Positions 40-13,671 of a stretch of DNA of 14,415 nt are shown here, in pieces. The stretch is from a virus (lineage: Duplodnaviria; Heunggongvirae; Uroviricota; Caudoviricetes), in the IMG/VR virus record IMGVR_UViG_2711768057_000001; one strand, written 5' to 3'. Position numbers and translations under genes: made by a program. A model generated the notes under the pieces. That model had not been told where the DNA came from. It ran no database searches and was given only the letters and a program-made list of their open reading frames with translations. Each line of letters begins with the position of its first letter. Position 1 is the stretch's first letter.

Positions 40-402
40 GGGGCTGATTCTGGATTCGACGGGATTTGCGAAACCCAAGGTGCATGCCGAGGGGCGGTTG
101 GCCTCGTAAAAAGCCGCAAAAAATAGTCGCAAACGACGAAAACTACGCTTTAGCAGCTTAATAACCTGCTTAGAGCCCTCTCTCCCTAGCCTCCGCTCTT
201 AGGACGGGGATCAAGAGAGGTCAAACCCAAAAGAGATCGCGTGGAAGCCCTGCCTGGGGTTGAAGCGTTAAAACTTAATCAGGCTAGTTTGTTAGTGGCG
301 TGTCCGTCCGCAGCTGGCAAGCGAATGTAAAGACTGACTAAGCATGTAGTACCGAGGATGTAGGAATTTCGGACGCGGGTTCAACTCCCGCCAGCTCCAC
401 CA
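40..402 (+). ncRNA. ssrA: tmRNA (transfer-messenger RNA, SsrA), 363 nt
   Basis: Begins GGGGCTGATTCTGGATTCGAC and ends GGTTCAACTCCCGCCAGCTCCACCA (tRNA-Ala-like acceptor/T-arm with CCA). Contains the internal tag reading frame at 129-161. Matches my recollection of E. coli ssrA. Confidence 0.96.
129..161 (+). other. tmRNA tag-peptide reading frame encoding ANDENYALAA followed by a stop
   Basis: GCA AAC GAC GAA AAC TAC GCT TTA GCA GCT TAA read directly from the sequence; this is the canonical SsrA degradation tag. Confidence 0.9.
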
Positions 403-412
403 AATCATGATC
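385..412. repeat. attL: ssrA 3'-terminal core sequence, left junction of the integrated island
   Basis: CTCCCGCCAGCTCCACCAAATCATGATC recurs in imperfect form at 9323-9348 (CTCCGCCAGCTCCACCAATCATGATT). Confidence 0.75.
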
Positions 413-438
413 CGGATACGTCCGGTGAAGTACAGAAA

Positions 439-470
439 GCCCGCACAGCACAAGCCCTGCGGGCTTTTTT
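439..470 (+). terminator. Rho-independent terminator downstream of ssrA
   Basis: Stem GCCCGCA (439-445) paired with TGCGGGC (458-464), followed by TTTTTT (465-470). Confidence 0.7.
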
Positions 471-585: not shown

Positions 586-1776
586 ATGGCGCGTATCACA
601 CGCCCCCTCACTAACAATGAAATCCTTAAAGCCAAACCCCGTGAAAAAGACTTCACCCTTCATGATGGTGATGGCTTGTTCTTGCTCGTCAAAACCACTG
701 GTAAAAAACTCTGGCGCTTCCGTTATCAACGACCGGGAAGCAGCAGCCGCACAAATTTGAGTCTCGGCTCATACCCTGCCCTTACACTCGCAGCAGCACG
801 TCAGATACGCGACCAGCACTTAATCACGCTTGCGCAAGGCATGGATCCACAACAGCAACAGGAGCAGGCGTCAGAACAACGCCAGATTGAGTTAGACAGC
901 ATTTTCTCAACAGTAGCTGCTAAATGGTTCCAGATTAAAAGCAGAAGTGTCACAGAGGATTATGCAAAGGATATTTGGCGTTCTTTGGATAAAGACGTGT
1001 TCCCGGCAATCGGTGCGATACCAGTTCAGGAGATTAAGGCCAGAACGATTGTTGAAGCATTGGAGCCAATAAAAGCACGTGGCGCATTAGAGACGGTTCG
1101 TCGCCTAGTCCAGCGTATTAACGAGATAATGATTTACGCGGTTAATACCGGTCTGATTGATGCAAATCCGGCATCAGGTGTTGGAATGGCATTTGAGAAA
1201 CCCAAAAAACAAAACATGCCCACGCTACGACCAGAAGAATTACCCAAGCTGATGCGTTCTCTGGTCATGTCAAATCTATCTGTTTCGACTCGCTGTCTTA
1301 TTGAGTGGCAGCTTCTGACCCTAGTGCGTCCTTCTGAGGCTTCTGGTGCTCGCTGGGTAGAGATCGATCTCGATGCCAAACTCTGGACGATTCCCGCCGA
1401 ACGAATGAAGGCTAAGCGTGAACACATTGTTCCTTTATCACCACAAGCATTAGAAATTCTGGATGTGATGAAACCTATCAGTGCTCATCGTGAGCATATT
1501 TTCCCGAGCAGGAATGATCCAAAGCACGCCATGAATAGTCAGACAGCAAATGCAGCGCTGAAACGTATTGGCTATGGAGGAAAACTCGTAGCCCATGGAT
1601 TACGCTCTATTGCCAGTACGGCCATGAATGAAGCTGGATTTAATGCTGATGTGATAGAGGCTGCTTTAGCCCATTCTGATAAAAATGAAGTAAGAAAAGC
1701 TTATAACCGCTCTACATATTTAGAACAACGTAAAGAGCTTATGTCATGGTGGGGAAGTCGAGTAAATAAAATATGA
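586..1776 (+). CDS. int: Tyrosine recombinase, P4-type integrase (396 aa)
   Basis: Full ORF with a GGAAGGG Shine-Dalgarno upstream. N-terminus MARITRPLTNNEILKAKPREKDFTLHDGDGLFLLV is typical of P4/CP4-57-type integrases, and the C-terminal catalytic region has HGLRS...Y. Position directly 3' of tmRNA fits. Confidence 0.9.
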   Translation: MARITRPLTNNEILKAKPREKDFTLHDGDGLFLLVKTTGKKLWRFRYQRPGSSSRTNLSLGSYPALTLAAARQIRDQHLITLAQGMDPQQQQEQASEQRQIELDSIFSTVAAKWFQIKSRSVTEDYAKDIWRSLDKDVFPAIGAIPVQEIKARTIVEALEPIKARGALETVRRLVQRINEIMIYAVNTGLIDANPASGVGMAFEKPKKQNMPTLRPEELPKLMRSLVMSNLSVSTRCLIEWQLLTLVRPSEASGARWVEIDLDAKLWTIPAERMKAKREHIVPLSPQALEILDVMKPISAHREHIFPSRNDPKHAMNSQTANAALKRIGYGGKLVAHGLRSIASTAMNEAGFNADVIEAALAHSDKNEVRKAYNRSTYLEQRKELMSWWGSRVNKI

Positions 1777-1813: not shown

Positions 1814-3712
1814 TTACTGCATATCGAGGAAGAATCTTGATGCAGGATGATATTTATAATCCCCCCAAGGCATCATTCTTTTTTCTGGATAAGTAACAAA
1901 AATCCAACGCCGAGATCGTGTTATAGCTACGAAAGCATTATTTCTTTCTTCATCTAGCTCGACTTTGCTCTTAGCTCGATAATCTGGAAAAACCCCCTCA
2001 CACATACCGATAAGGAAAACTATATCTTTTTCAAGTCCTTTCATTGTATGAACAGTACTTAACATAATCCCATTATTTAAGGTATCATCATTAAGCTGAC
2101 CCAAAGCAAGTGCATTCCTAAATGAGGATAGATTATCACCGAGGCCTTTACGTTTGAATCGTGTCCACATGGATTGAAGCTGCTCTATATCTTTAATCCC
2201 TGTGGCAATATCATCTTCTTTAGCAGAATCTTTGGTATTTGCTCCTAAATTCACCAGTTCTGATTTAATATCTAAACAGAACTTCAAAATATTAGGTGTG
2301 TCTACAGACATATGATCAATATGTGCTAAAACCAAGCTAATTAAATCTTTATCTAGGTTAGATGATTTTTTTATGTCAGCATAGACTTTGCTAATATCGT
2401 AGGTAACATCTGATTCTGGATTTAATTCTAAACCGATTAATTTATACAATCTCTTCCCATCAACCCAATCCTTTGGATTAACCTTAACCCTTATAGCAAG
2501 ATCGACTATTTTCCCAATAAGAGAAACAGGCGATTCATTTCTATCACTACGCTTTAGGAAATAAGGTATATTTCTTTTTTTAAGCTCACTTTCCATAGCT
2601 TTAAAAACAAATCTATTTCTACCTATAACAACAATTTTAGAGCAATCAATATCGCCCTCAATTTCTGGATGTCTTTTTAAATTCAGTATATGTTGAATGC
2701 TATCACAAACCCATATAGCTTCAGATTCTTCATCTGGTAAAGCATTAAAAGATTTATAGCCATCAAGAGCAGCATTAACACCAACTTGGCTATTTGGTTT
2801 TAATTTATTAGCTAATTCAATCACTGCTTTCGAAGATCTATAGTTCTCGTTTAAACAATAAATTTTAGGAGTAAAATCTTTCACGAATGATTTAATAAAA
2901 TAATCTGATGATGAACCATTAAAACCATAGATCATCTGGTCACTATCACCAACCATCATGACATCTTTTATTTTATCACCGCAGAGAACCTTTATAAATT
3001 CGTACTGAGCTCTGTTTAAGTCTTGAGCTTCATCAACAAATAAAGCAACGTATTTTTTTTGATATATTCTTGCTACTGAATCTTGATTTAATAGGATTTT
3101 ATGTGCATATAAAAGTATATCATCAAAATCCACACCACCACTTTCCAATAAAGCAGACTGATAATCTTGATAAATATTCCAAATACGCGGATTGGAACTG
3201 AATTTTATCTTTACTTCATCTTCAGTTAAAAGCTCTCTTTTAATAATAGAGAATACATTAAGATATTGACTTATAATTTTTTCACGATTGCGCTTTTCTC
3301 TAACGTCCTCAACATCTAAGTATTCATCAATATTAACCCCCTGTTCTCTTAAGGAATGTAGAAAAACCTCCATCCGATCTTGGTCACGTTCAAATATATG
3401 TAATTCTTTTGGTAACCCAATAGTATACCCATAACTTTCGAGTACCCTTTGTGCAACAGAATGAATCGTAGCAATCCAAATCCTATCACGATTTTCTGAG
3501 CCATCATCTAACCTTTCAAGCATTTCATCTGCTGCTTTATTTGTGAATGTTAAAGCAACCACACTTCCTCTAGCAGAGTTATTGAGAATGAACCTAACCC
3601 TCTCAGTAAGCACTCTTGTTTTACCAGACCCTGCAGATGCAAGAACTTGTATAGCCCCTCCCATAGGAGCTTTAACAACTTCAATTTGAGATTGTGATAA
3701 ATTATCAATCAT
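1814..3712 (-). CDS. gajB: UvrD/PcrA/Rep-like superfamily 1 helicase (632 aa), Gabija GajB-like
   Basis: SF1 helicase motifs read from the translation: I AGSGKT, Ia TFTNKAADEM, II VDEAQD, III VGDSDQMIYGF, IV NYRSS, V TVHTMKGLEKDIVF, VI VAITRSRR. Start ATG overlaps the upstream OLD-like stop (ATGA at 3709-3712). Confidence 0.8.
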   Translation of the reverse strand: MIDNLSQSQIEVVKAPMGGAIQVLASAGSGKTRVLTERVRFILNNSARGSVVALTFTNKAADEMLERLDDGSENRDRIWIATIHSVAQRVLESYGYTIGLPKELHIFERDQDRMEVFLHSLREQGVNIDEYLDVEDVREKRNREKIISQYLNVFSIIKRELLTEDEVKIKFSSNPRIWNIYQDYQSALLESGGVDFDDILLYAHKILLNQDSVARIYQKKYVALFVDEAQDLNRAQYEFIKVLCGDKIKDVMMVGDSDQMIYGFNGSSSDYFIKSFVKDFTPKIYCLNENYRSSKAVIELANKLKPNSQVGVNAALDGYKSFNALPDEESEAIWVCDSIQHILNLKRHPEIEGDIDCSKIVVIGRNRFVFKAMESELKKRNIPYFLKRSDRNESPVSLIGKIVDLAIRVKVNPKDWVDGKRLYKLIGLELNPESDVTYDISKVYADIKKSSNLDKDLISLVLAHIDHMSVDTPNILKFCLDIKSELVNLGANTKDSAKEDDIATGIKDIEQLQSMWTRFKRKGLGDNLSSFRNALALGQLNDDTLNNGIMLSTVHTMKGLEKDIVFLIGMCEGVFPDYRAKSKVELDEERNNAFVAITRSRRWIFVTYPEKRMMPWGDYKYHPASRFFLDMQ

Positions 3713-5484
3713 AGCTCAAGCCATCCCCTAACTTTATTAAATGCAATAATAACAGATTCCGGAAGTAATTCCTCAATTCTCTTTCCATTTGCATTCTGTG
3801 CTAGAATCACCCCTAAATACCCTGCATAACTAGCTTTTGAGTCACGCATTTTTTCAATTATAGCACTATCTTGTAAAGCCTCTATTTCTCTTTTCTTGGC
3901 ATCTCGATACCGTTCATTAGGACTAGCTTTGGTTTCACTTAACACTAATGATTCAATTATTTCCTCACGAATATTCAACTCGTTGTATAACTCAGCTTCA
4001 ATATCATTTGTTTCTTTGAGGAACTCTAAGGAGAAACAATCAGGATTCAATACGAGGCCATCTTCACGAACTAAACGTGCTACCTGACGGTTTATCTCAC
4101 CATGAGTATCACCATCATTATCACTAATAATACAGACAGGGATACCTAAATTACTTGCAAGTTTAATGAATGGTGGGTAATTTTTACCACTGACACTTAC
4201 ACAGTTAACTCCAACACTGAACATCGTCCTACCGAAATACAATTCAAACATGGATGGTATTAATTGTTCTTCTGTAACACCCTCACATAAAATTAAGGCT
4301 CGAGAGAAAAGCAACTCACCACGGGTTAACATTATCTCCCTTTTTAATGCATTTTTTTCATCATGTTCAATTCTTTTCTTCAGACAATTTACTGTTACTC
4401 CATCACCTTTCTTTATGAATGATCTTATATCTTCTATCTCAGCCATTGCGCTCAGGTATGGTGAATGAGTACTCAGTATAATTTGTCCCTGAGATGATGA
4501 TAACTGTTTAAACAAGGTTCTTTGTGCATTGGGATGTAGATGCGCTTCTGGCTCTTCAGCTCCAACAATTGGATGTAGCGCCTTATTTTCGAGCTCATGC
4601 CGCTCATGCATAAAGCTTAAAAACGATTGAACTGTAAGCATTGAAGCCCAACTTCTCGTCCCCGTGCCATGATATTCCATTGAAAATGAATGGTTTTCTT
4701 CATCTCCGAAATGTACTGTAAATTGCTTTGATAGATCTCGGATTTTTTTAGGGAAAGGAGTTATTTCTGTGTGGCTTGATCCTAGAAATGATTGGTTTAA
4801 CCCTTGAAGTGAATTTTTTAAGCTTTGAAGCGGCTCACTTCTACTCACTGCGGTTTCATTTATTGAACTTATCATTTCTTCAAGTGCAGTAACATCTTCA
4901 TCTTCATATTTAATATATGATAAGACCTTCCCTATATATGAGCTTTTATCTTTAAGCTCATGATGTATATCCCTCTGAGCCTCAATACAAATATAGGGGA
5001 TTGCATCAACTTTTGTTCTTACCTTTCTTCTCTCGTTGACAACAATGTCTTTCCATCCCTCAAACTCCCCCCATTCATTCAAATAATAACGTTGTGTATT
5101 AAACCCACCTTTTATCTCATCTGGCTGAACTTTTGTACGAATAGCCACAAACTCATGTCCATTTGCATCTACTGCAATATTATCACCGAAAACATCAATC
5201 CATTTTTCGTCAAACTCTTCTGTTTTATTACAATGTTCATCCGTAGGTATTATTTTTAAGTCAACGATAACTTCATTAACTTTTAATCCAGAACTATCTA
5301 TATGAAGATCTTCATCACTAAAGTAACGTTGGTAATCACCTAAAGCTAGTTGCAACGATTTTAGGAAAGATGTTTTCCCCGCATTGTTTGTACCTAACAA
5401 AACGGCAATACGTCCTAGCTCAACCTCAATTTCCTTTATACCTCTAAAACCTGAAATCCTAACAGAATTTATAAGAATTGACAT
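3709..5484 (-). CDS. gajA: OLD-family ATP-dependent nuclease (N-terminal ABC-type ATPase plus C-terminal TOPRIM; 591 aa), Gabija GajA-like
   Basis: Walker A GTNNAGKTS, Walker B-like IVGAEEPEAHLHP, H-loop STHSP, and TOPRIM motifs LILCEGVTEEQ and ISDNDGD. AGGAGG Shine-Dalgarno upstream. Paired in an operon with a UvrD-like helicase, the class 2 OLD/Gabija arrangement. Confidence 0.8.
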   Translation of the reverse strand: MSILINSVRISGFRGIKEIEVELGRIAVLLGTNNAGKTSFLKSLQLALGDYQRYFSDEDLHIDSSGLKVNEVIVDLKIIPTDEHCNKTEEFDEKWIDVFGDNIAVDANGHEFVAIRTKVQPDEIKGGFNTQRYYLNEWGEFEGWKDIVVNERRKVRTKVDAIPYICIEAQRDIHHELKDKSSYIGKVLSYIKYEDEDVTALEEMISSINETAVSRSEPLQSLKNSLQGLNQSFLGSSHTEITPFPKKIRDLSKQFTVHFGDEENHSFSMEYHGTGTRSWASMLTVQSFLSFMHERHELENKALHPIVGAEEPEAHLHPNAQRTLFKQLSSSQGQIILSTHSPYLSAMAEIEDIRSFIKKGDGVTVNCLKKRIEHDEKNALKREIMLTRGELLFSRALILCEGVTEEQLIPSMFELYFGRTMFSVGVNCVSVSGKNYPPFIKLASNLGIPVCIISDNDGDTHGEINRQVARLVREDGLVLNPDCFSLEFLKETNDIEAELYNELNIREEIIESLVLSETKASPNERYRDAKKREIEALQDSAIIEKMRDSKASYAGYLGVILAQNANGKRIEELLPESVIIAFNKVRGWLEL

Positions 5485-5793: not shown

Positions 5794-6360
5794 CTACCGT
5801 GCGGCCAGTTCTGCACGCCGGCGGGTATAAATCATGTTCTGTACAGGGGTGAATTTTTCACGATTATCATCCCGCGAAGGCGCGTCAGGCCTGTATCCGA
5901 TGGCCGTTAAAATGTCGTTATCCTGTGCAGAATAATTAATTTCATTTCCTGCGGCCAGCCAGACGGAAAGAGCTTCTCGCAGGTAATCTACTGAACGGTC
6001 AAGCGCACGGTTTTTTATCATCTCAGGCTGGTTCTTAATCCCCATCAGCTCCGGTGCCAGTGCGGCGGCCAGCTCTGCGCCGTCCTGCTGCATAAAATCA
6101 TGCAGCCGGTTACGAATGCTGATGCGCTGCACCTCTTCATGCGAGAAAATGTAGCGACCGGCGGCCTGATTAACTTCCCATTTTTTTATGTCAATCAGGT
6201 CGCGCTGCGACTGTAATCCGCGGGAACCTGATGCGTTGTCATCCAGCAATAATTCCTGATATTCCTGCACTGCGGCGGCCAGTTCGGCTTTACGGTTCAG
6301 CCACGCGGTTTTGTTCGTCTGACAGGCTTCATAGGCCTGCTGTAAGGTCAGGGTGGTCAC
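5794..6360 (-). CDS. psu: Psu-like polarity suppression / capsid decoration protein (188 aa)
   Basis: Translation MTTLTLQQAYEACQTNKTAWLNRKAELAAA...KWEVNQAAGRYI...FTPVQNMIY resembles P4 Psu as recalled. GTG start with AGGAGA Shine-Dalgarno 8 nt upstream. Confidence 0.8.
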   Translation of the reverse strand: MTTLTLQQAYEACQTNKTAWLNRKAELAAAVQEYQELLLDDNASGSRGLQSQRDLIDIKKWEVNQAAGRYIFSHEEVQRISIRNRLHDFMQQDGAELAAALAPELMGIKNQPEMIKNRALDRSVDYLREALSVWLAAGNEINYSAQDNDILTAIGYRPDAPSRDDNREKFTPVQNMIYTRRRAELAAR

Positions 6361-6376
6361 GGGTTGTCTCTCCTGA

Positions 6377-6622
6377 TTAGTGGCGGAACGGCGAGCTGTA
6401 GCAATCTTTTACCCGGCGAGGTGCTGCGGGTATTGTCGGCACCGGCGCGGGTTTCTCATCGATGACCGGAGAACGTATCACTTCAAAGATGGACTCATGC
6501 GTTTTGAATGTCGCCGAGCAGTGCACATTCTGGCACTGCAGGTAACTCTCTTTGACGCTCTCGGACATATAGCGGCTGGTGCGGACGTGAGCCGCCGTGC
6601 GGCAGAAAGGGCAGCGCATCAT
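6377..6622 (-). CDS. Ogr/Delta-family zinc-finger late transcription activator (81 aa, single domain)
   Basis: CPFC...C(x)nC zinc-finger pattern (MMRCPFCRTAAHVRTSRYMSESVKESYLQCQNVHCSATF), similar to P2 Ogr. Start overlaps the sid stop (ATGA at 6619-6622). Confidence 0.8.
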   Translation of the reverse strand: MMRCPFCRTAAHVRTSRYMSESVKESYLQCQNVHCSATFKTHESIFEVIRSPVIDEKPAPVPTIPAAPRRVKDCYSSPFRH

Positions 6623-7356
6623 GACAGTAGCCCCCGTGCTTTCAGGTCGGCTTCACGTTCCCGCATTTTTTCCTGCCAGACTTTCCGCTGAACGGGCGTG
6701 GCCGCAACGTCATGCTCCATATGCGGCAGCGTGGAGGCCGACAGCCCTGTTTTAAACAGCACCGGTTCATCGGTCAGACGGATATTGCAGCCCTTTACGG
6801 CCTGTTCAAGCCACGCTTTCACCTGCTGCATTACAACTTTTTCCGGTTCGGTATATCCCTGATGGCCTGTGGTATTGGCTAGCGGGTTATTCAGAACCAG
6901 TATGTTGAGTTTCATTGCCCTGACCAGCGCGCTACAGGTGTCACGCAGGGCAACATCAAGCTCATGCTCTGCATACTGGCTGAGGACGCTGTGATGTGCC
7001 TGACGATACGCTCTGGCCGTCCGGTCACACGCTCCTTTAAGGCTGTCCAGCTCAAAAGACAGAACCTCAGCCATATTGTCACATTCCTGCGCCAGTTCCC
7101 GCCGTGCCACGCGCGTCAGATGGCGTTGTTTCAGCTCGCCGGTAACGACAGCACCACCGGCACGAAAGGCGGCGCGCCATGCGCCGGAATCATTGTCATT
7201 TTCCTGCTCCAGTTCCTTTTTTTGTGCTTTCACCTGGCTGACGGCCGCCGTGGTTTCATCCATACGGCTGGCATTGGCGAGATGCGCCGAGCGGGCAGTC
7301 TCAAGGCGTTCCATTGCAGGTTTAAGGTAGTCGGGAATAACAGCGGTCTGAGTCAT
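6619..7356 (-). CDS. sid: Sid-like capsid size determination (external scaffold) protein, about 245 aa
   Basis: Translation MTQTAVIPDYLKPAMERLETARSAHLANASRMDETTAAV...ARGLLS resembles P4 Sid as recalled. I place the start at the internal ATG at 7356 (AGGAGA Shine-Dalgarno 6 nt upstream), not the ORF-track start at 7422. Confidence 0.8.
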   Translation of the reverse strand: MTQTAVIPDYLKPAMERLETARSAHLANASRMDETTAAVSQVKAQKKELEQENDNDSGAWRAAFRAGGAVVTGELKQRHLTRVARRELAQECDNMAEVLSFELDSLKGACDRTARAYRQAHHSVLSQYAEHELDVALRDTCSALVRAMKLNILVLNNPLANTTGHQGYTEPEKVVMQQVKAWLEQAVKGCNIRLTDEPVLFKTGLSASTLPHMEHDVAATPVQRKVWQEKMREREADLKARGLLS

Positions 7357-7428
7357 GTCAGGTCTCCTCTTCATTTCAATCTGAGGAGATTCTGCCGCGC
7401 CAGACACAACAACACGATTCATTGCCGT

Positions 7429-7892: not shown

Positions 7893-8159
7893 ATGCACAC
7901 TGCTTTTTCTTCCCCGTCTTCTGCCCCTGCCGCGCCACTGATACCGGTCTCTGATGCCGTTCAGGAGCGATTTATCCGCCTGCCTGAAGTGATGCATCTG
8001 TGCGGCCTGTCACGGTCAACCATTTACGACCTCATCAGCCGGGAAGCCTTCCCGAAACAAATCTCCCTCGGTGGAAAAAACGTGGCGTGGGCGCACTCAG
8101 AAATCATGGCATGGATGACTGACCGCATTGCCGAACGTAACCGGGGTTATGACGCATGA
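7893..8159 (+). CDS. vis: AlpA/Vis-family helix-turn-helix regulator (88 aa)
   Basis: [48 protein letters not shown] matches the AlpA-family pattern (RLPEV...G.S..TIY......FP......V.W...EI..W). Position divergent from sid corresponds to P4 vis (orf88). Confidence 0.7.
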
Positions 8160-8194
8160 TGGTGACCATTCAGCAAACAGCCCCTTTTTCTGGC

Positions 8195-8224
8195 TTGCTT
8201 CCCTTCGCCGTTTCCAGGTATAGT
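8195..8224 (+). promoter_or_regulatory. Candidate sigma70 promoter (TTGCTT, 18 nt spacer, TATAGT), P4 PLE-like early promoter
   Basis: Hexamers at 8195-8200 and 8219-8224, immediately upstream of the seqA-like element. Confidence 0.35.
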
Positions 8225-8253
8225 TTTATCGCTGTCGCAAAATCGGCAGCCGG

Positions 8254-8279
8254 GCGTAGGAACCCGTGTAATTCACAGG
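8254..8279 (+). promoter_or_regulatory. seqA-like element (GCGTAGGAAC ... ATTCACAGG), upstream target of the immunity RNA
   Basis: Direct repeat of the element at 8461-8501 and complementary to 8416-8436. Confidence 0.5.
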
Positions 8280-8286
8280 CGACAAC

Positions 8287-8309
8287 AGACGCGCCATGCG
8301 TCTTTTTTT
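8287..8309 (+). terminator. Intrinsic terminator hairpin with a T7 tract inside the early leader
   Basis: AGACGC, loop GCCAT, GCGTCT, then TTTTTTT (8303-8309). Confidence 0.55.
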
Positions 8310-8384
8310 ACGTCGTTGCTCAGGCACACCCATTTTTCGGGCTGTGGTGCTTATCCCATAGCCCCTGTCAGATAATGGTGGTCC

Positions 8385-8440
8385 GGGCGGGGCAGCCTTC
8401 GGGCTGGCCGGTATTCTGTGAAGCCGGTATTCCTACCCCC
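8385..8440 (+). ncRNA. Candidate P4 CI-like immunity RNA core (seqB plus a UUCG-tetraloop hairpin); boundaries approximate
   Basis: Hairpin CAGCC-TTCG-GGCTG at 8393-8406. The 8416-8436 segment (CTGTGAAGCCGGTATTCCTAC) is the reverse complement, in bipartite form, of GTAGGAA and TTCACAG in the seqA and seqC repeats. Confidence 0.4.
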
Positions 8441-8460
8441 GTTCGGGTCACCACCCATGA

Positions 8461-8501
8461 GCGTAGGAACTCCGGTGGTGGCAATAACCGCTATTCACAG
8501 G
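8461..8501 (+). promoter_or_regulatory. seqC-like element overlapping the ribosome-binding site of the first early ORF
   Basis: GCGTAGGAAC at 8461-8470 and ATTCACAGG at 8493-8501; the Shine-Dalgarno AGGAGG at 8499-8504 overlaps it. Confidence 0.5.
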
Positions 8502-8512
8502 AGGTTGCCCTT

Positions 8513-8707
8513 ATGGCTACGACCCTCACCCCGTCACACCCGCAGTTTGTTTTTGTGTTTGCCGCCGTTCGTCGCGCCGACCGTAAACTCCGCATCTGTA
8601 TGCTTCGTACCGTTGCCGGTGATGAACACGCCGCACGTCTTTCCCTCGTTCGCGATTACGTCCTCTCGTTTGCTGGCCGTCTGCCGGTTGCGGAGGTGCG
8701 CGCATGA
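8513..8707 (+). CDS. Small early-operon protein (64 aa), hypothetical; positionally kil-like
   Basis: Internal ATG at 8513 with AGGAGG Shine-Dalgarno 9 nt upstream. The upstream 119 codons of the ORF-track call (8156..8707) cover the structured RNA region and are not credible coding. Stop overlaps the next start (ATGA). Confidence 0.55.
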
Positions 8708-8931
8708 GACACTCCACCATTACCGCCCGAGACCTCGAATGTCTGGAGCATATGCGCAACGTCGGCCAGCTCGTCGGCGACCTGATGCAGGTGCAGGACT
8801 GCGCGACCGTTAGGCGTGACCCTGCGCAGCAGTTACAGCTCACCTCCGTGATTTACCTCATGACCGCCCAGCTAGACAGCGTGGTCGAGCGCTGCAATCA
8901 GCACTGGCTGACCGGGGAGGGTAATGTATGA
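8704..8931 (+). CDS. Small early-operon protein (75 aa), hypothetical
   Basis: GGAGGT Shine-Dalgarno 6 nt upstream; ATGA overlaps at both ends indicate translational coupling. Confidence 0.5.
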
Positions 8932-9248
8932 AAAAGCCATTACCACCCGTATTACGTGCCGCGCTGTATCGTCGCGCCGTGGCCTGTGCATGGCTAACCC
9001 TGTGCGAACGTCAGCACCGCTATCCGCAACTCACCCTCGATGCACTCGAAAGCGCCATTGCCGCCGAGCTGGAGGGCTTCTACCTGCGCCAGCATGGCGA
9101 GGAAAAAGGCCGTCAGATTGCCTGTGCACTGCTGGAAGATTTAATGGAAGCTGGGCCACTCAAGGCCGCGCCCTCACTGTCCTTTCTCGGGCTCGCGGTG
9201 ATGGATGAACTTTGCGCCCGTCATATCACCGCACCGGTACTGCACTGA
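8928..9248 (+). CDS. Small early-operon protein (106 aa), hypothetical
   Basis: GGGGAGGG Shine-Dalgarno upstream; start overlaps the previous stop (ATGA). Last gene before attR. Confidence 0.55.
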
Positions 9249-9322
9249 GGGAGAAAATAACAATGAAAATGAATGTACGGAAAAATCCTTTATATTTAAT
9301 ACATTGAGAAATTTATTCAGAC

Positions 9323-9348
9323 TCCGCCAGCTCCACCAATCATGATTG
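9323..9348. repeat. attR: imperfect direct repeat of the ssrA 3' end, right junction of the island
   Basis: CTCCGCCAGCTCCACCAATCATGATT versus attL CTCCCGCCAGCTCCACCAAATCATGATC; the two copies differ by two single-base indels and one terminal substitution. Confidence 0.7.
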
Positions 9349-9468
9349 GACGGTATAAGGACAACACCAATAAAAACAGGAAGTTAGCAGTCTCAGCAGG
9401 ACACCGACCAGACGGTGAAGAGACATAAAAGGATACGCAAAGGAGCCGCGGCTCCTGGTGACATGAAA

Positions 9469-9489
9469 GCCCACAGATGTGGGCTTTTT
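9469..9489 (+). terminator. Rho-independent terminator-like hairpin downstream of attR
   Basis: GCCCAC, loop AGAT, GTGGGC, then TTTTT; resembles the hairpin after ssrA at attL. Confidence 0.5.
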
Positions 9490-9498
9490 CGTTGATGG

Positions 9499-12400
9499 TC
9501 AGAACGACCAGTTCACACCAGCTACCCCGTTCCACGGGGATTCCACACCGGCACCATGGCTATACCCCACCCCAAGATGCCCGCTTAACGTACTGCTGAA
9601 TGAGGCTTTAATACCTGCCTGGTATATTCCACGTCTGCCCGACAAATCATTGACGAAATTACCGTCACTATTCACTTTCACCCGGTTATCATCGACAAAT
9701 TCTTTGCGCACAGCCGCCTTCAGCCACGGCTCAACTTCCATACCGTTCCCCAGACGCATGTTGTAACTCAGCGTTGCACCCAGTTCACGATATAAACTGC
9801 GGGTATCGACTGATTTCGATTCCATGCCATTGGATAAATGATATTCAGGGTTATCAGCGGTGAACCCCCGTTAACGATGCATACGGCGTCAGGTTCCAGT
9901 TACCATCGGTAAATCGCATCCCGGTTTCAATGTGACCGCCCAGCCCGTTGCTGCGATAACTGCCGTTGGCGGCTCCACCGCTGCCAACCGTGGAGTCGCG
10001 AGCTTCGGTACCTGCTAATACCAATAAATTACCGCCATTTTCCAGCAACATATTGGTCGCTAAATTGCCGGAAATGGAAAAAGTGCCGTACTGGTGAGTA
10101 CCGCTGATTTCAATACCGTTAGCCGTGCTCGTCTGGAGAGCGGCACCGCTGTTCTGGACGATATCTGTCGCTTTGCCATTATCGTTAACTGTCAGCGTAC
10201 CGCCTTCATTGATCTTTGTTTTTATTGCCTCTCCGTTAGCTGAAACTGTTTGTATTCCGCCGTCGTTAATCGTTGTCTCATTCGCCACCCCCTCGACGAT
10301 TTGTTCGCCGCCGGTGAGCGTCGTGCCTGTCGCAGTGGCTTTTGTTTTGACGATCTCCCGTCCGCCCGTATTGACCTGTGTTTTGTCAGAAGAGGTGTCT
10401 GACTCCATGGTTAACACGCCGCCATTTGCCAGCAGGATATTGTTCGCCGCACCCTGCTCGATGCTGAACGCGACGCCATCCGCGCGTGTTCCTGTGACCC
10501 GCGTCGCCCTGGTGGTTGCAACCAAAGCGTCCTGGCTACTCTGCTGTATCCCCGTTGCGCTGCCTTTCTCCCGCACATCGAGTGTGCCGCCGTCATTAAG
10601 CACCGAGTTTTCAGCCAGACCGCCCTCATTAACTACCTGTGAACACCCATTAATAATGGAACCTTCCGCTGTCCCGTTTGCCATAATTTGTTGTAGGCCA
10701 GAGACGATATCGGTATTGATTGCCTTACCATAATTCTGAACGGTTTGCGTGCCACCATTGATGTGTGTTTTCTCTGTTGACCCACCATCAACAATTTGTT
10801 CACCACTTTCGATATTTGCCTCAGTGGCTAATCCATATACCGTTTGCTTGCCACCTTTGATATTTGCTTTATCAGAAGTGGCACTGGCATATATTGTTTG
10901 GGTGCCAGCACTATTGAGTACAGTGCCAACATCTTTTCCATAAACATCCATTTTGCCGTTGGCATTAATAATCGTATCAACTGCCCGGGAACCAGTGACG
11001 ACTGTTAATGAGCCAGCGTTTTCCAGCACTACATTTTTAGCTTCTGAATTCCTGATGTAGAAAGCATCACCATAACTGTTGGTTCCTTCGATAAGGGTTC
11101 CGGAAGTTGTGGAAGCAATTAATGCGCCGCCGGATTGTTGCTCAACATGCTTAGCCTCACCACCGTCCTGAACCTCCAGAACGCCACCATTATTAAGTCT
11201 GGTGGTATCTGTTTTAGCCTCCTTCTGGACAATCAGCTTACCGCCAGCATCAACGGTAGTATTTTTCGCCGAGGTTTTAGCCACTACCGTCAGTTCGCCG
11301 GTATTTTCCAGCACAACATAATTAGCCTCCCCTCCGGTAATAGTGAAGTGAGAGAGCTTGTTGTATCCTTCAATATCAGTCCCTGCGCCCGTGTTGGCAA
11401 CTAAAGCACTGCCCGTCTCCTGGTTAACCCCATGTGCAATACCACCGGTATAGACAATCAGCGAGCCTCCGGCGCTAATATTGCTGCCAGTTGCCGTACC
11501 ATCTTTCTCAACAACCTGCCGGCTCCCGGAGGATATAATTGTCGTGTCAGCTTTCCCGCCGCTCTTGATATTTTGCGTTCCGCCGTTGATATTGGTACCC
11601 GTGGCAATACCATGATTATTAATATTCTGTGTACCACCATTGATTATGGTATTGGTCGCGTTTCCGGTAACATCCATTACCCCGCCGTTATCTATTCGGG
11701 TCGCATCAGCTTTAGCATTCGTTAAAACTGACATTGTTCCTTTATCTTTAATAATCGTCTTGTTTGCCGAACCATATGCGTTTATGTCTAAATGACCACC
11801 GTTTTCCAGCAACACATTGTCTGCCACGTGATTGTGGATGGAGAATGCACCTTCACTATTCGTACCGCTCACCGTCGTACCGTTAGTGTTTGTTTTTAAA
11901 ATTGCACCATCGTGCTGGGTAACATTTGTTGCCGTACCACCACTAACATCAAGCACGCCACCGGAATAAACTTCAATAACATCCGAGGAGCTGGTGTAAT
12001 CAACAATTTGCGTACCACCAGAATAGATCTGAGTATTTTTGCCGTTGACTTATTATTCAGAGACTGAGTTCCACCTTCAATCATCGTGTCCAGCGCATGG
12101 CTTTCATATACTCTTTGCTCACCGCCATTTTTAATGGTGGTTGTTCCTACTGTGCTCTGTTCAACATACTGTCGTCCACCATTTATGATTGTGTTCGTTG
12201 CAATACTTCCTTGCGTGATGTCCTGATAACCGGACTTATTTATCGTTGTACCATCAACATGCCCCTGAGTTGTTACTTTCTGCCCTCCACCATCAATGAT
12301 GGTTCCATTCGCAGTCCCCCCACTTATGTGTGAATTACCACCCTTAATTGTCGTTCCATTGCTGATACCACCTGTATAAACGTCCTGATTGCCACTGTCG

Positions 12401-12768
12401 ATTATCGTACCGGTGGAAATGCCCCCGTCATGAATTGTCTGTCTTCCTCCGTTAATGGTTGTATTATTAGCCTGCCCCACAAAATTGTTATGACTTCCTA
12501 CATCTTGATATCCACCCGATTCAATAAGACTTCCATTAGATACCCCGCCATGAACATTCTGCTGGCCATGGTTGATAATATGAGTGTTATTTGTTGTACC
12601 TCGTTCATCTACTCTTTGGCTGCCATCTACAGTCTCATCGTTTACCACACCAATAACATCAGGAGTGAAGGCCGTCATCCCAGGCGGGGCATATATCAAG
12701 GCAGATATCAATAAGGAAAGTACTGAGCGGCGACAATAATGGGGACTGGTCCTGTTCATAAATTTCAT
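9499..12768 (-). pseudogene. ypjA: ypjA-like autotransporter adhesin split over three reading frames, with a short C-terminal beta-domain
   Basis: N-terminal fragment has a signal peptide (MKFMNRTSPHYCRRSVLSLLISALIYAPPGMTA); a 700 aa repetitive passenger region follows; the C-terminal fragment ends ...GVESPWNGVAGVNWSF, the autotransporter terminal signature. The three ORFs (11896..12888, 9854..11956, 9499..9825) are contiguous but in different frames. Confidence 0.7.
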
Positions 12769-13139
12769 CCTCTGAAAAGTGAATACTGAGTAGCGTTTAA
12801 GCGACCTTAGCTCTGCTGCAACATCAGCCCACAGGCACCAGACCAGGGGATTCATCCTGAAGAGACAGCGCAAGTGTATTGTGTTCACCGCTCATCAAAG
12901 ACATCATGATGAAATGATGATATTCCACATAAGAAAGAAGCATTTTTTAAACGCAGTGCGCTGAAGTATGGTTGGATAAAAAAGTCAATCTATTCAGGGA
13001 ATACGGGGGTATTCTTTTCTTTCGACAATCAGGCCGTCGGCAAAATAAAATGATTTACATAATCGTTTCTGATGAATATCTTCTGCTCACATAAAAATAA
13101 CACAATAACTTTGAGATCGCAGATTCTTTTACTTTTACA

Positions 13140-13290
13140 GCATTCGTCCCCCCATTGTTGGGCAAATATAGATTGGGCCAGAGCACGAAAGTTAATACCA
13201 CGTTTGCACAGCTCCTCCAACAGCACGACAAGATGCCACATACTGCGCCCCAGTCGGTTCGGTTTACAGACTACCCGTGCGTCCACCGCC
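13140..13290 (-). pseudogene. Serine recombinase (Pin/Hin/Gin-type invertase) remnant; approximate extent
   Basis: ORF 13029..13286 contains VVCKPNRLGRSMWHLVVLLEELCKRGINFRAL, matching the conserved invertase motif (VVWKLDRLGRS...L...EL...GI.FRSL). The catalytic N-terminus and the C-terminal HTH are absent. Confidence 0.4.
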
Positions 13291-13671
13291 GATAATGTCC
13301 TGAGCAGTTTTTTCAGTCCGGACCTCCTGCCACGGTTTTACGTTGAAGAGGTAACCCTGAGCACGCAGTTCATCAGTCAGGCGTGGTGTACCGTAACCCT
13401 ATTATTGATGGGTAAGATCAAAAAAACTTTCAGGCAGCTAAGGAAAGTTGAACCAGACATTAGAATAAATATTTCAACCAATTACAGCACCAATTCAGAC
13501 ACCGCCAGCTCAACAAATAAATCAAGGGGTTACGTGAAAGCGTAGCCCCTTTTTCTTTGGTAGTGGCAGCAAAATGGTTGTAGTGTAAAAAATAATCCCG
13601 TTTAATCAATCAATAATACATATTGTTTCAATCTACGTTATTATCTCTTTGTAAAAATAGCCATTTATTAA

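Follow-up and report, generated by a model that had tools for sequence, protein, structure and literature searches.

The sequence analysed here (the window) is a stretch of 14,415 nt that is 100% identical to Escherichia coli KSC9 (NZ_CP018323.1, 344920-359334) and to three further pig isolates. In the RefSeq annotation of KSC9, the window begins directly after smpB and runs from ssrA to ypjCB, in the order ssrA, integrase, helicase and nuclease, psu, delta, one hypothetical gene, a rightward operon of small genes, a fragmented ypjA, a recombinase fragment, and ypjCB. The following features were assigned (window coordinates, strand, and basis of the assignment).

40-402, plus strand: ssrA (tmRNA gene), intact (ARAGORN; Rfam RF00023, 295.8 bits; RefSeq KSC9)
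388-411, plus strand: attL identity block CCGCCAGCTCCACCAA, then ATCATGAT (repeat comparison)
436-470, plus strand: T1, the island-supplied ssrA terminator, AAAGCCCGCA...TGCGGGC T6 (terminator scan, folding)
586-1776, plus strand: tyrosine integrase with Arm-DNA-bind_3, Phage_int_M and Phage_integrase (Pfam; RefSeq)
1814-5484, minus strand: Gabija defence cargo in the int-psu hotspot, GajB 1814-3712 and GajA 3709-5484
5794-7422, minus strand: P4-type late genes psu, delta (Ogr_Delta), and the ORF at the sid position (Pfam; RefSeq)
7893-9248, plus strand: rightward operon (HTH, Icd-like, DUF5375) (RefSeq)
8231-8308, plus strand: isrK RNA (Rfam)
8371-8458, plus strand: C4 RNA (Rfam)
9262-9311, plus strand: deletion joint (comparison with the S103EC satellite)
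9315-9346, plus strand: attR, consisting of island-side ATTCAGACT, the displaced ssrA 3' end CCGCCAGCTCCACCA(A), and TCATGAT (repeat comparison)
9324-9339, plus strand: displaced ssrA 3' end within attR (CCA at 9336-9338), equivalent of K-12 psaA
9339-9489, plus strand: T2, the pre-insertion ssrA trailer, 151 nt (empty-site matches, folding, allele comparison)
9390-9424 and 9442-9455, plus strand: internal hairpins of T2
9466-9489, plus strand: terminator of T2, stem 9466-9474 / 9479-9487, T5 at 9485-9489 (folding)
9499-12888, minus strand: fragmented ypjA/ehaD autotransporter pseudogene (ORFs, RefSeq, Pfam)
13167-13334, minus strand: pinH-like serine invertase fragment (RefSeq; comparison with the LLS invertase)
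13493-13518, plus strand: third, decayed ssrA 3' fragment with the IntA-type island-side flank ATTCAGAC (23 of 26 nt against 9315-9340)
13502-13577, plus strand: T3, a Fels-2-family attP/attL arm including a terminator at 13524-13554 (sequence identity, terminator scan)

The P4-like satellite

Both Rfam and ARAGORN recovered the full length of ssrA, so that an intact target gene stands at one end of the island; the last approximately 15 nt of the gene are now island-supplied. The integrase beside attL has 60% amino acid identity to IntA of K-12 (CP4-57). Just upstream of its start lies a 16-nt inverted repeat, AATTGGTACACGTTTA / TAAACATGTACCAATT (513-528 / 553-568, 15 of 16 positions complementary), which could be a regulatory or arm-type site. 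The hallmarks of a P4-like satellite were present, namely int, psu, delta, the C4 RNA, and an ORF in the sid position. This last ORF matched no Pfam family and was assigned by position only. isrK and C4 RNAs are typical of P4-type satellites. The Gabija genes scored 902 bits (GajB) and 814 bits (GajA).

The right part of the satellite is incomplete in comparison with its complete relative in S103EC, homology to which stops at 9277, 15 nt into the primase ORF, and resumes at 9311, left of the att core. Approximately 2.8 kb, comprising the alpha primase-helicase and the ori repeats, is missing, and both alpha and ori are absent from the satellite; what is left is approximately 15 nt of the alpha ORF and, beside the att core at attR, approximately 13 nt of island DNA. 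The satellite is, on this comparison, a deletion derivative of a P4-like satellite, probably non-replicative and with a truncated excision arm; the loss of most of the island-side arm at attR may prevent excision altogether.

The attR junction and the empty site

The block CCGCCAGCTCCACCAA occurs exactly (16 of 16 nt, same orientation) at the end of ssrA (388-403) and at 9324-9339, 8.9 kb downstream of the gene. Beyond it there is a 1-nt indel, after which the similarity resumes through ATCATGAT to about 9346. A third copy, with 2 mismatches, was found at 13502-13517. The number of matches expected by chance was 0.12, and three copies were seen in none of 200 shuffles. The initial annotation had placed a copy of the ssrA terminus at 9323-9348, which was correct to within one base.

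To represent the empty site, ssrA (150-402) was joined directly to 9339-9640, and this synthetic sequence was searched against all complete E. coli genomes. Over its full 555 nt it matched unbroken at 100% in many E. coli chromosomes, that of IAI1 among them, and 1389 genomes reached at least 80% coverage. In IAI1, the T2 trailer, its hairpin, and the 3' end of ypjA come directly behind the tmRNA gene. No excision scars were seen in the empty-site genomes, the identity being 100%. Since the empty site is exact in island-free E. coli, the window differs from them by a clean 8.9-kb insertion between two ssrA termini.

We are thus highly confident that 9315-9489 is the attR of an 8.9-kb P4-like satellite that entered the 3' end of E. 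coli ssrA via an IntA-family integrase, and that T2 is "ancestral" by one step only. In the proposed event, the attP of the satellite would have carried its own copy of the last approximately 15 nt of ssrA together with the trailer and terminator T1 (403-470), by which ssrA would have been left intact at attL, and the previous ssrA tip (9324-9338) and T2 (9339-9489) would have been displaced to attR. The initial annotation had proposed just this, a true integration in which the element supplies a new 3' end and pushes the old one with its terminator to the far junction, and had suggested alignment of the attR region with the DNA behind ssrA in island-free relatives; the single-piece match in IAI1 and many others, the repeat, and the integrase beside attL bear the proposal out. 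Its description of the displaced end as "ancestral" and as the host side of the junction holds relative to the satellite insertion only. The T2 module is also carried at attP by phages LLS and phiNP (see below). That the 16-nt match and the hairpin arose by chance, with no integration, has nothing more than the short length of the repeat in its favour; in view of the shuffling result, the exact empty site in hundreds of genomes, and the adjoining integrase, its probability is practically negligible.

The corresponding junction of K-12 is the attR of CP4-57, a region approximately 96% identical to the window through the T-run, in which the ssrA fragment, 14 nt long, bears the pseudogene name psaA (b4645). 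The two loci agree in position, in trailer and terminator, in integrase family, and in the island-side flank TTCAGACTCCGCCAGC, whereas the junctions enclose the 22-kb CP4-57 in K-12 and the 8.9-kb P4-like satellite with Gabija in the window. The K-12 fragment is without one T (GC-CCACCA). The attR copies of psaA, S103EC and E10 all lack this T of GCTCCACCA, which is retained in the window copy. In Shewanella oneidensis, the prophage CP4So, which has a P4 integrase, lies in ssrA, and its attR copy sets the post-excision ssrA sequence; this attR is without a T, and excision deletes a U and so mutates ssrA (PMC5148205). The window differs from CP4So in that its attR copy is intact, so that excision from KSC9 would restore a wild-type, IAI1-type ssrA. 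By analogy with CP4So, excision in K-12, S103EC and E10 could leave ssrA one U short, depending on the crossover.

A tDNA with a displaced fragment is reportedly the signature of integrative islands treated by Williams in "Traffic at the tmRNA gene". The Islander approach is based on the principle that an island restores the split tDNA and that the displaced fragment marks the end of the island (PMC4383910). The window shares this signature (an intact tmRNA gene, a 3' fragment in the same orientation, and an integrase-bearing island between them), and nothing essential differs; a strict Islander "tandem" call, however, would fail for the older members of the array, the integrases of which are lost. 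Thus, the phenomenon and the very site are already known from psaA, from the Islander principle, and from the tmRNA gene as an integration hotspot. The attR junction fixes the right boundary of the satellite to the base, which is useful for island-boundary calling and leaves the current understanding unchanged. What the present analysis adds is small, namely the reading of three layers and the pairing of T1, T2 and T3 with separate families of elements.

The hairpin at 9466-9489 and the T2 trailer

The hairpin consists of GCCCAC (9469-9474), the loop AGAT (9475-9478), GTGGGC (9479-9484), and T5 (9485-9489), and starts approximately 121-127 nt past the ssrA repeat. Its stem extends to 9-10 bp, AAAGCCCAC/GTGGGCTTT, from 9466. 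The folding energy is -16.8 kcal/mol (z = -3.7; equalled by 1 of 200 shuffles), and the hairpin has the form of an intrinsic (Rho-independent) terminator, with a GC-rich stem, a 4-nt loop, and T5 on the plus strand. The hairpin was thus present as initially described, approximately 120 bp past the ssrA copy. It was absent from the list produced by the consensus terminator scan of the window, presumably because greedy stem extension consumes three of the T's; after folding, this miss was treated as a scanner artefact. The resemblance to the terminator behind ssrA at attL (436-470), also part of the initial annotation, is real, the two having AAAGCCC.C...GGGCTTTTT in common, and is insufficient to tell homology from convergence.

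Comparison of alleles indicates that the hairpin is the end of a conserved, structured ssrA trailer of 151 nt (T2). The terminal hairpin is kept in A42, S103EC, E10, H1 and LLS, an A-T pair of the stem being replaced by G-C in a compensatory manner across alleles, and an upstream 14-nt palindrome changes from GGAGCCGCGGCTCC to GGAGTCGCGACTCC; double changes were found in 5 of the 33 predicted T2 pairs (seven sequences compared). In phiNP, another hairpin with a T-run stands where the terminal hairpin would be. In every context compared, the similarity ends at the T-run, and T2 is, on these alignments, a discrete module ending exactly there. Searches of T2 and T3 against Rfam at a permissive threshold gave only sub-threshold matches. 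The T2 module also contains five RGACR motifs, all on one strand, and three internal hairpins that compensatory changes have preserved.

What follows the T-run varies. In most strains it is ypjA-pinH-ypjCB-ileY-ygaQ; in H1 it is a restriction-modification pair, in E10 nucleases, and in A42 (B2-type; extracted segment 6999-7680) the order is ssrA, trailer, 333 nt, glaH. The spot directly behind the T-run thus behaves, in the strains compared, as a variable hotspot. For the 333-nt segment of A42, neither the KSC9 nor the K-12 locus contained a significant match. The ypjA-bearing and B2-type arrangements differ by the replacement of 9.3 kb by 333 nt, which is no simple indel. In KSC9, where ypjA/ehaD is annotated as a pseudogene with a frameshift, the gene falls into three ORFs of 108, 700 and 330 aa. 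The pinH fragment was considered as a tie of the ypjA region to an LLS-like prophage and was rejected, the similarity to the LLS invertase (55% aa over 53 residues) being that of invertases in general.

Whether the hairpin serves mainly to terminate the convergent ypjA, and stands near the att repeat by coincidence, was also considered. The stop codon of the C-terminal ypjA fragment (9499) is 10 nt from the stem, which folds on the minus strand as well (-14.9 kcal/mol). On that strand, however, only UUU follows the stem, against T5-T6 on the plus strand, and in A42, H1, E10 and LLS, where ypjA is missing, the hairpin is retained with its spacing to the ssrA CCA unchanged. Moreover, homology between ypjA-bearing and ypjA-free loci breaks exactly past the T-run, and the hairpin therefore belongs to the trailer module. 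We regard a primary role in ypjA termination as very unlikely.

As the end of the ssrA trailer, the hairpin would act differently in strains with and without the satellite. In island-free strains, T2 lies directly 3' of ssrA and, we infer, terminates the tmRNA precursor there. In KSC9, transcription of ssrA should stop at T1, with T2 cut off from the gene. The T1 module is also found behind ssrA in K-12, where CP4-57 is inserted, and in numerous further Enterobacterales that bear islands of the IntA type. The trailer is thus strain-dependent (T1 in K-12 and KSC9, T2 in IAI1), which makes it relevant to studies of pre-tmRNA 3' processing. The rightward operon of the satellite ends at 9248; no terminator was found between it and the hairpin in the terminator scan, and the hairpin is the first terminator-like structure past it. 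By its position, T2 in KSC9 would stop only read-through from this operon and, weakly, the convergent ypjA fragment, and it probably shields the ypjA-side DNA from satellite read-through.

Origin of the trailers and layering at the locus

T2 with the preceding ssrA tip is 87% identical over 166 nt to a segment of phage LLS (extracted segment 3477-3667), which is annotated there as "tmRNA pseudogene", adjoins the annotated attP, and lies approximately 0.9 kb from the integrase. A further match to T2 is formed by the initial 142 nt of Citrobacter phage phiNP (start of the record, 1-160). The attP regions of both phages, which are temperate and ssrA-linked, carry the last approximately 39 nt of ssrA followed by a trailer of approximately 150 nt with the same internal hairpins and a terminator, at 85-87% identity to T2; they differ from the window in that the annotated core of LLS is in the T-arm, 5' of the IntA-type site, and in that the window retains nothing else of such a phage. 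Phage Ayreon has a T2-like trailer body with no ssrA core (extracted segment 3501-3607). We also considered T2 as the arm of one integrase family; this is not supported in so simple a form, as the integrases of LLS and Ayreon share nothing beyond the catalytic motif.

When other species were scanned with the 3' 32-mer of ssrA, at least 120 loci were obtained; among the loci listed, none was from Salmonella, Klebsiella or E. fergusonii, and those from Atlantibacter, Pseudocitrobacter and Enterobacter soli had T2-like trailers behind ssrA that were nearly alike by eye. In E. albertii NBRC 107761, the small palindrome of T2 is kept; in the approximately 120 nt behind ssrA the terminal hairpin is missing, and an ORF of an AIDA-type autotransporter comes next.

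From these data, we lean towards T2 having been left by an earlier element of the LLS/phiNP type. The competing account is that T2 is the native ssrA trailer and terminator of Escherichia, "ancestral" in the deep sense, of which LLS and phiNP took a host-like copy. T2 is indeed widespread, standing behind ssrA or at the far end of an ssrA island in approximately 77% of E. coli genomes (it was undetected in approximately 23%); its first 87 nt are 96% identical in the E. albertii strain; and in B2-type strains, where it follows ssrA, no more than 333 nt of other DNA separate it from the core gene glaH. However, T2 alleles are only 88-100% identical within E. coli, and the strains examined pair different alleles with different downstream DNA. 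The body of T2 occurs in Ayreon without any ssrA core, and the look-alike trailers of Atlantibacter, Pseudocitrobacter and Enterobacter soli adjoin genes for phage tail fibres in the arrangement seen in phiNP. Older states of the locus are further implied by the more distal ssrA fragment described below, which is also more decayed. We consider a native T2 a tenable minority view. As T1, T2 and T3 each match a module of a mobile-element family, one may also speculate, with considerable doubt, that E. coli has no native ssrA terminator left and that T2 has roles besides termination, such as providing recombination-arm sites, signalling pre-tmRNA processing, or acting as a small RNA. If no native terminator were left, phages and satellites would routinely set the 3' processing context of tmRNA.

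The third ssrA fragment (13493-13518, ATTCAGACACCGCCAGCTCAACAAAT; chance expectation 0.00), approximately 4 kb past T2, has an island-side flank that is also present at the CP4-57 attR of K-12. The fragment itself is found in K-12 and IAI1 as well, and the K-12 copy is decayed at other positions. Five nucleotides past it stands the T3 terminator (-19.8 kcal/mol). Identity of 93-96% was found between 13502-13577 and the attP/attL annotated in Fels-2, and likewise with SopEPhi, RE2010, 500465-1 and Cartapus; against the Fels-2 attP (NC_010463, positions 7-83) the identity is 93.5%, with the arm directly behind an ssrA 3' end. In Fels-2, the same arm including the terminator faces the ogr-D late genes. 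Compared with Fels-2 and SopEPhi, the ssrA part in the window is decayed (2 mismatches in 16 nt and an indel), the left flank is of the IntA type, and no Fels-2 genes follow. The region 13493-13577 is, on these alignments, a hybrid junction in which a decayed ssrA tip joins a flank of the IntA type to an arm of the Fels-2 type, as expected if an IntA-type island once entered an ssrA bearing the trailer of a Fels-2-like prophage.

Read in this way, the 14 kb of the window hold three generations of element-associated ssrA trailers, and the history of the locus may have been as follows. A Fels-2-like phage would have supplied T3, which the insertion of an IntA-type island would then have displaced. 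An LLS/phiNP-like element would next have supplied T2, and later deletions would have removed the older bodies and integrases, leaving ypjA and the pinH fragment. Finally, in the KSC9 lineage, the P4-like satellite would have supplied T1 and pushed T2 to 9339-9489. New elements always enter beside the intact gene, and more distal fragments should therefore be older and more decayed, as observed. The locus is a clean example of a tmRNA gene that accumulates layered, element-derived 3' trailers through repeated insertion while older elements erode. When ssrA was joined synthetically to T3 (13519 onward), no E. coli genome was found to have the two directly joined. In other genera, T3 sequence stands immediately behind the ssrA CCA in Franconibacter, Enterobacter, Raoultella, Xenorhabdus and Photorhabdus, and P2-type gpD lies near the T3-like sequence in two of these five (both among the loci listed).
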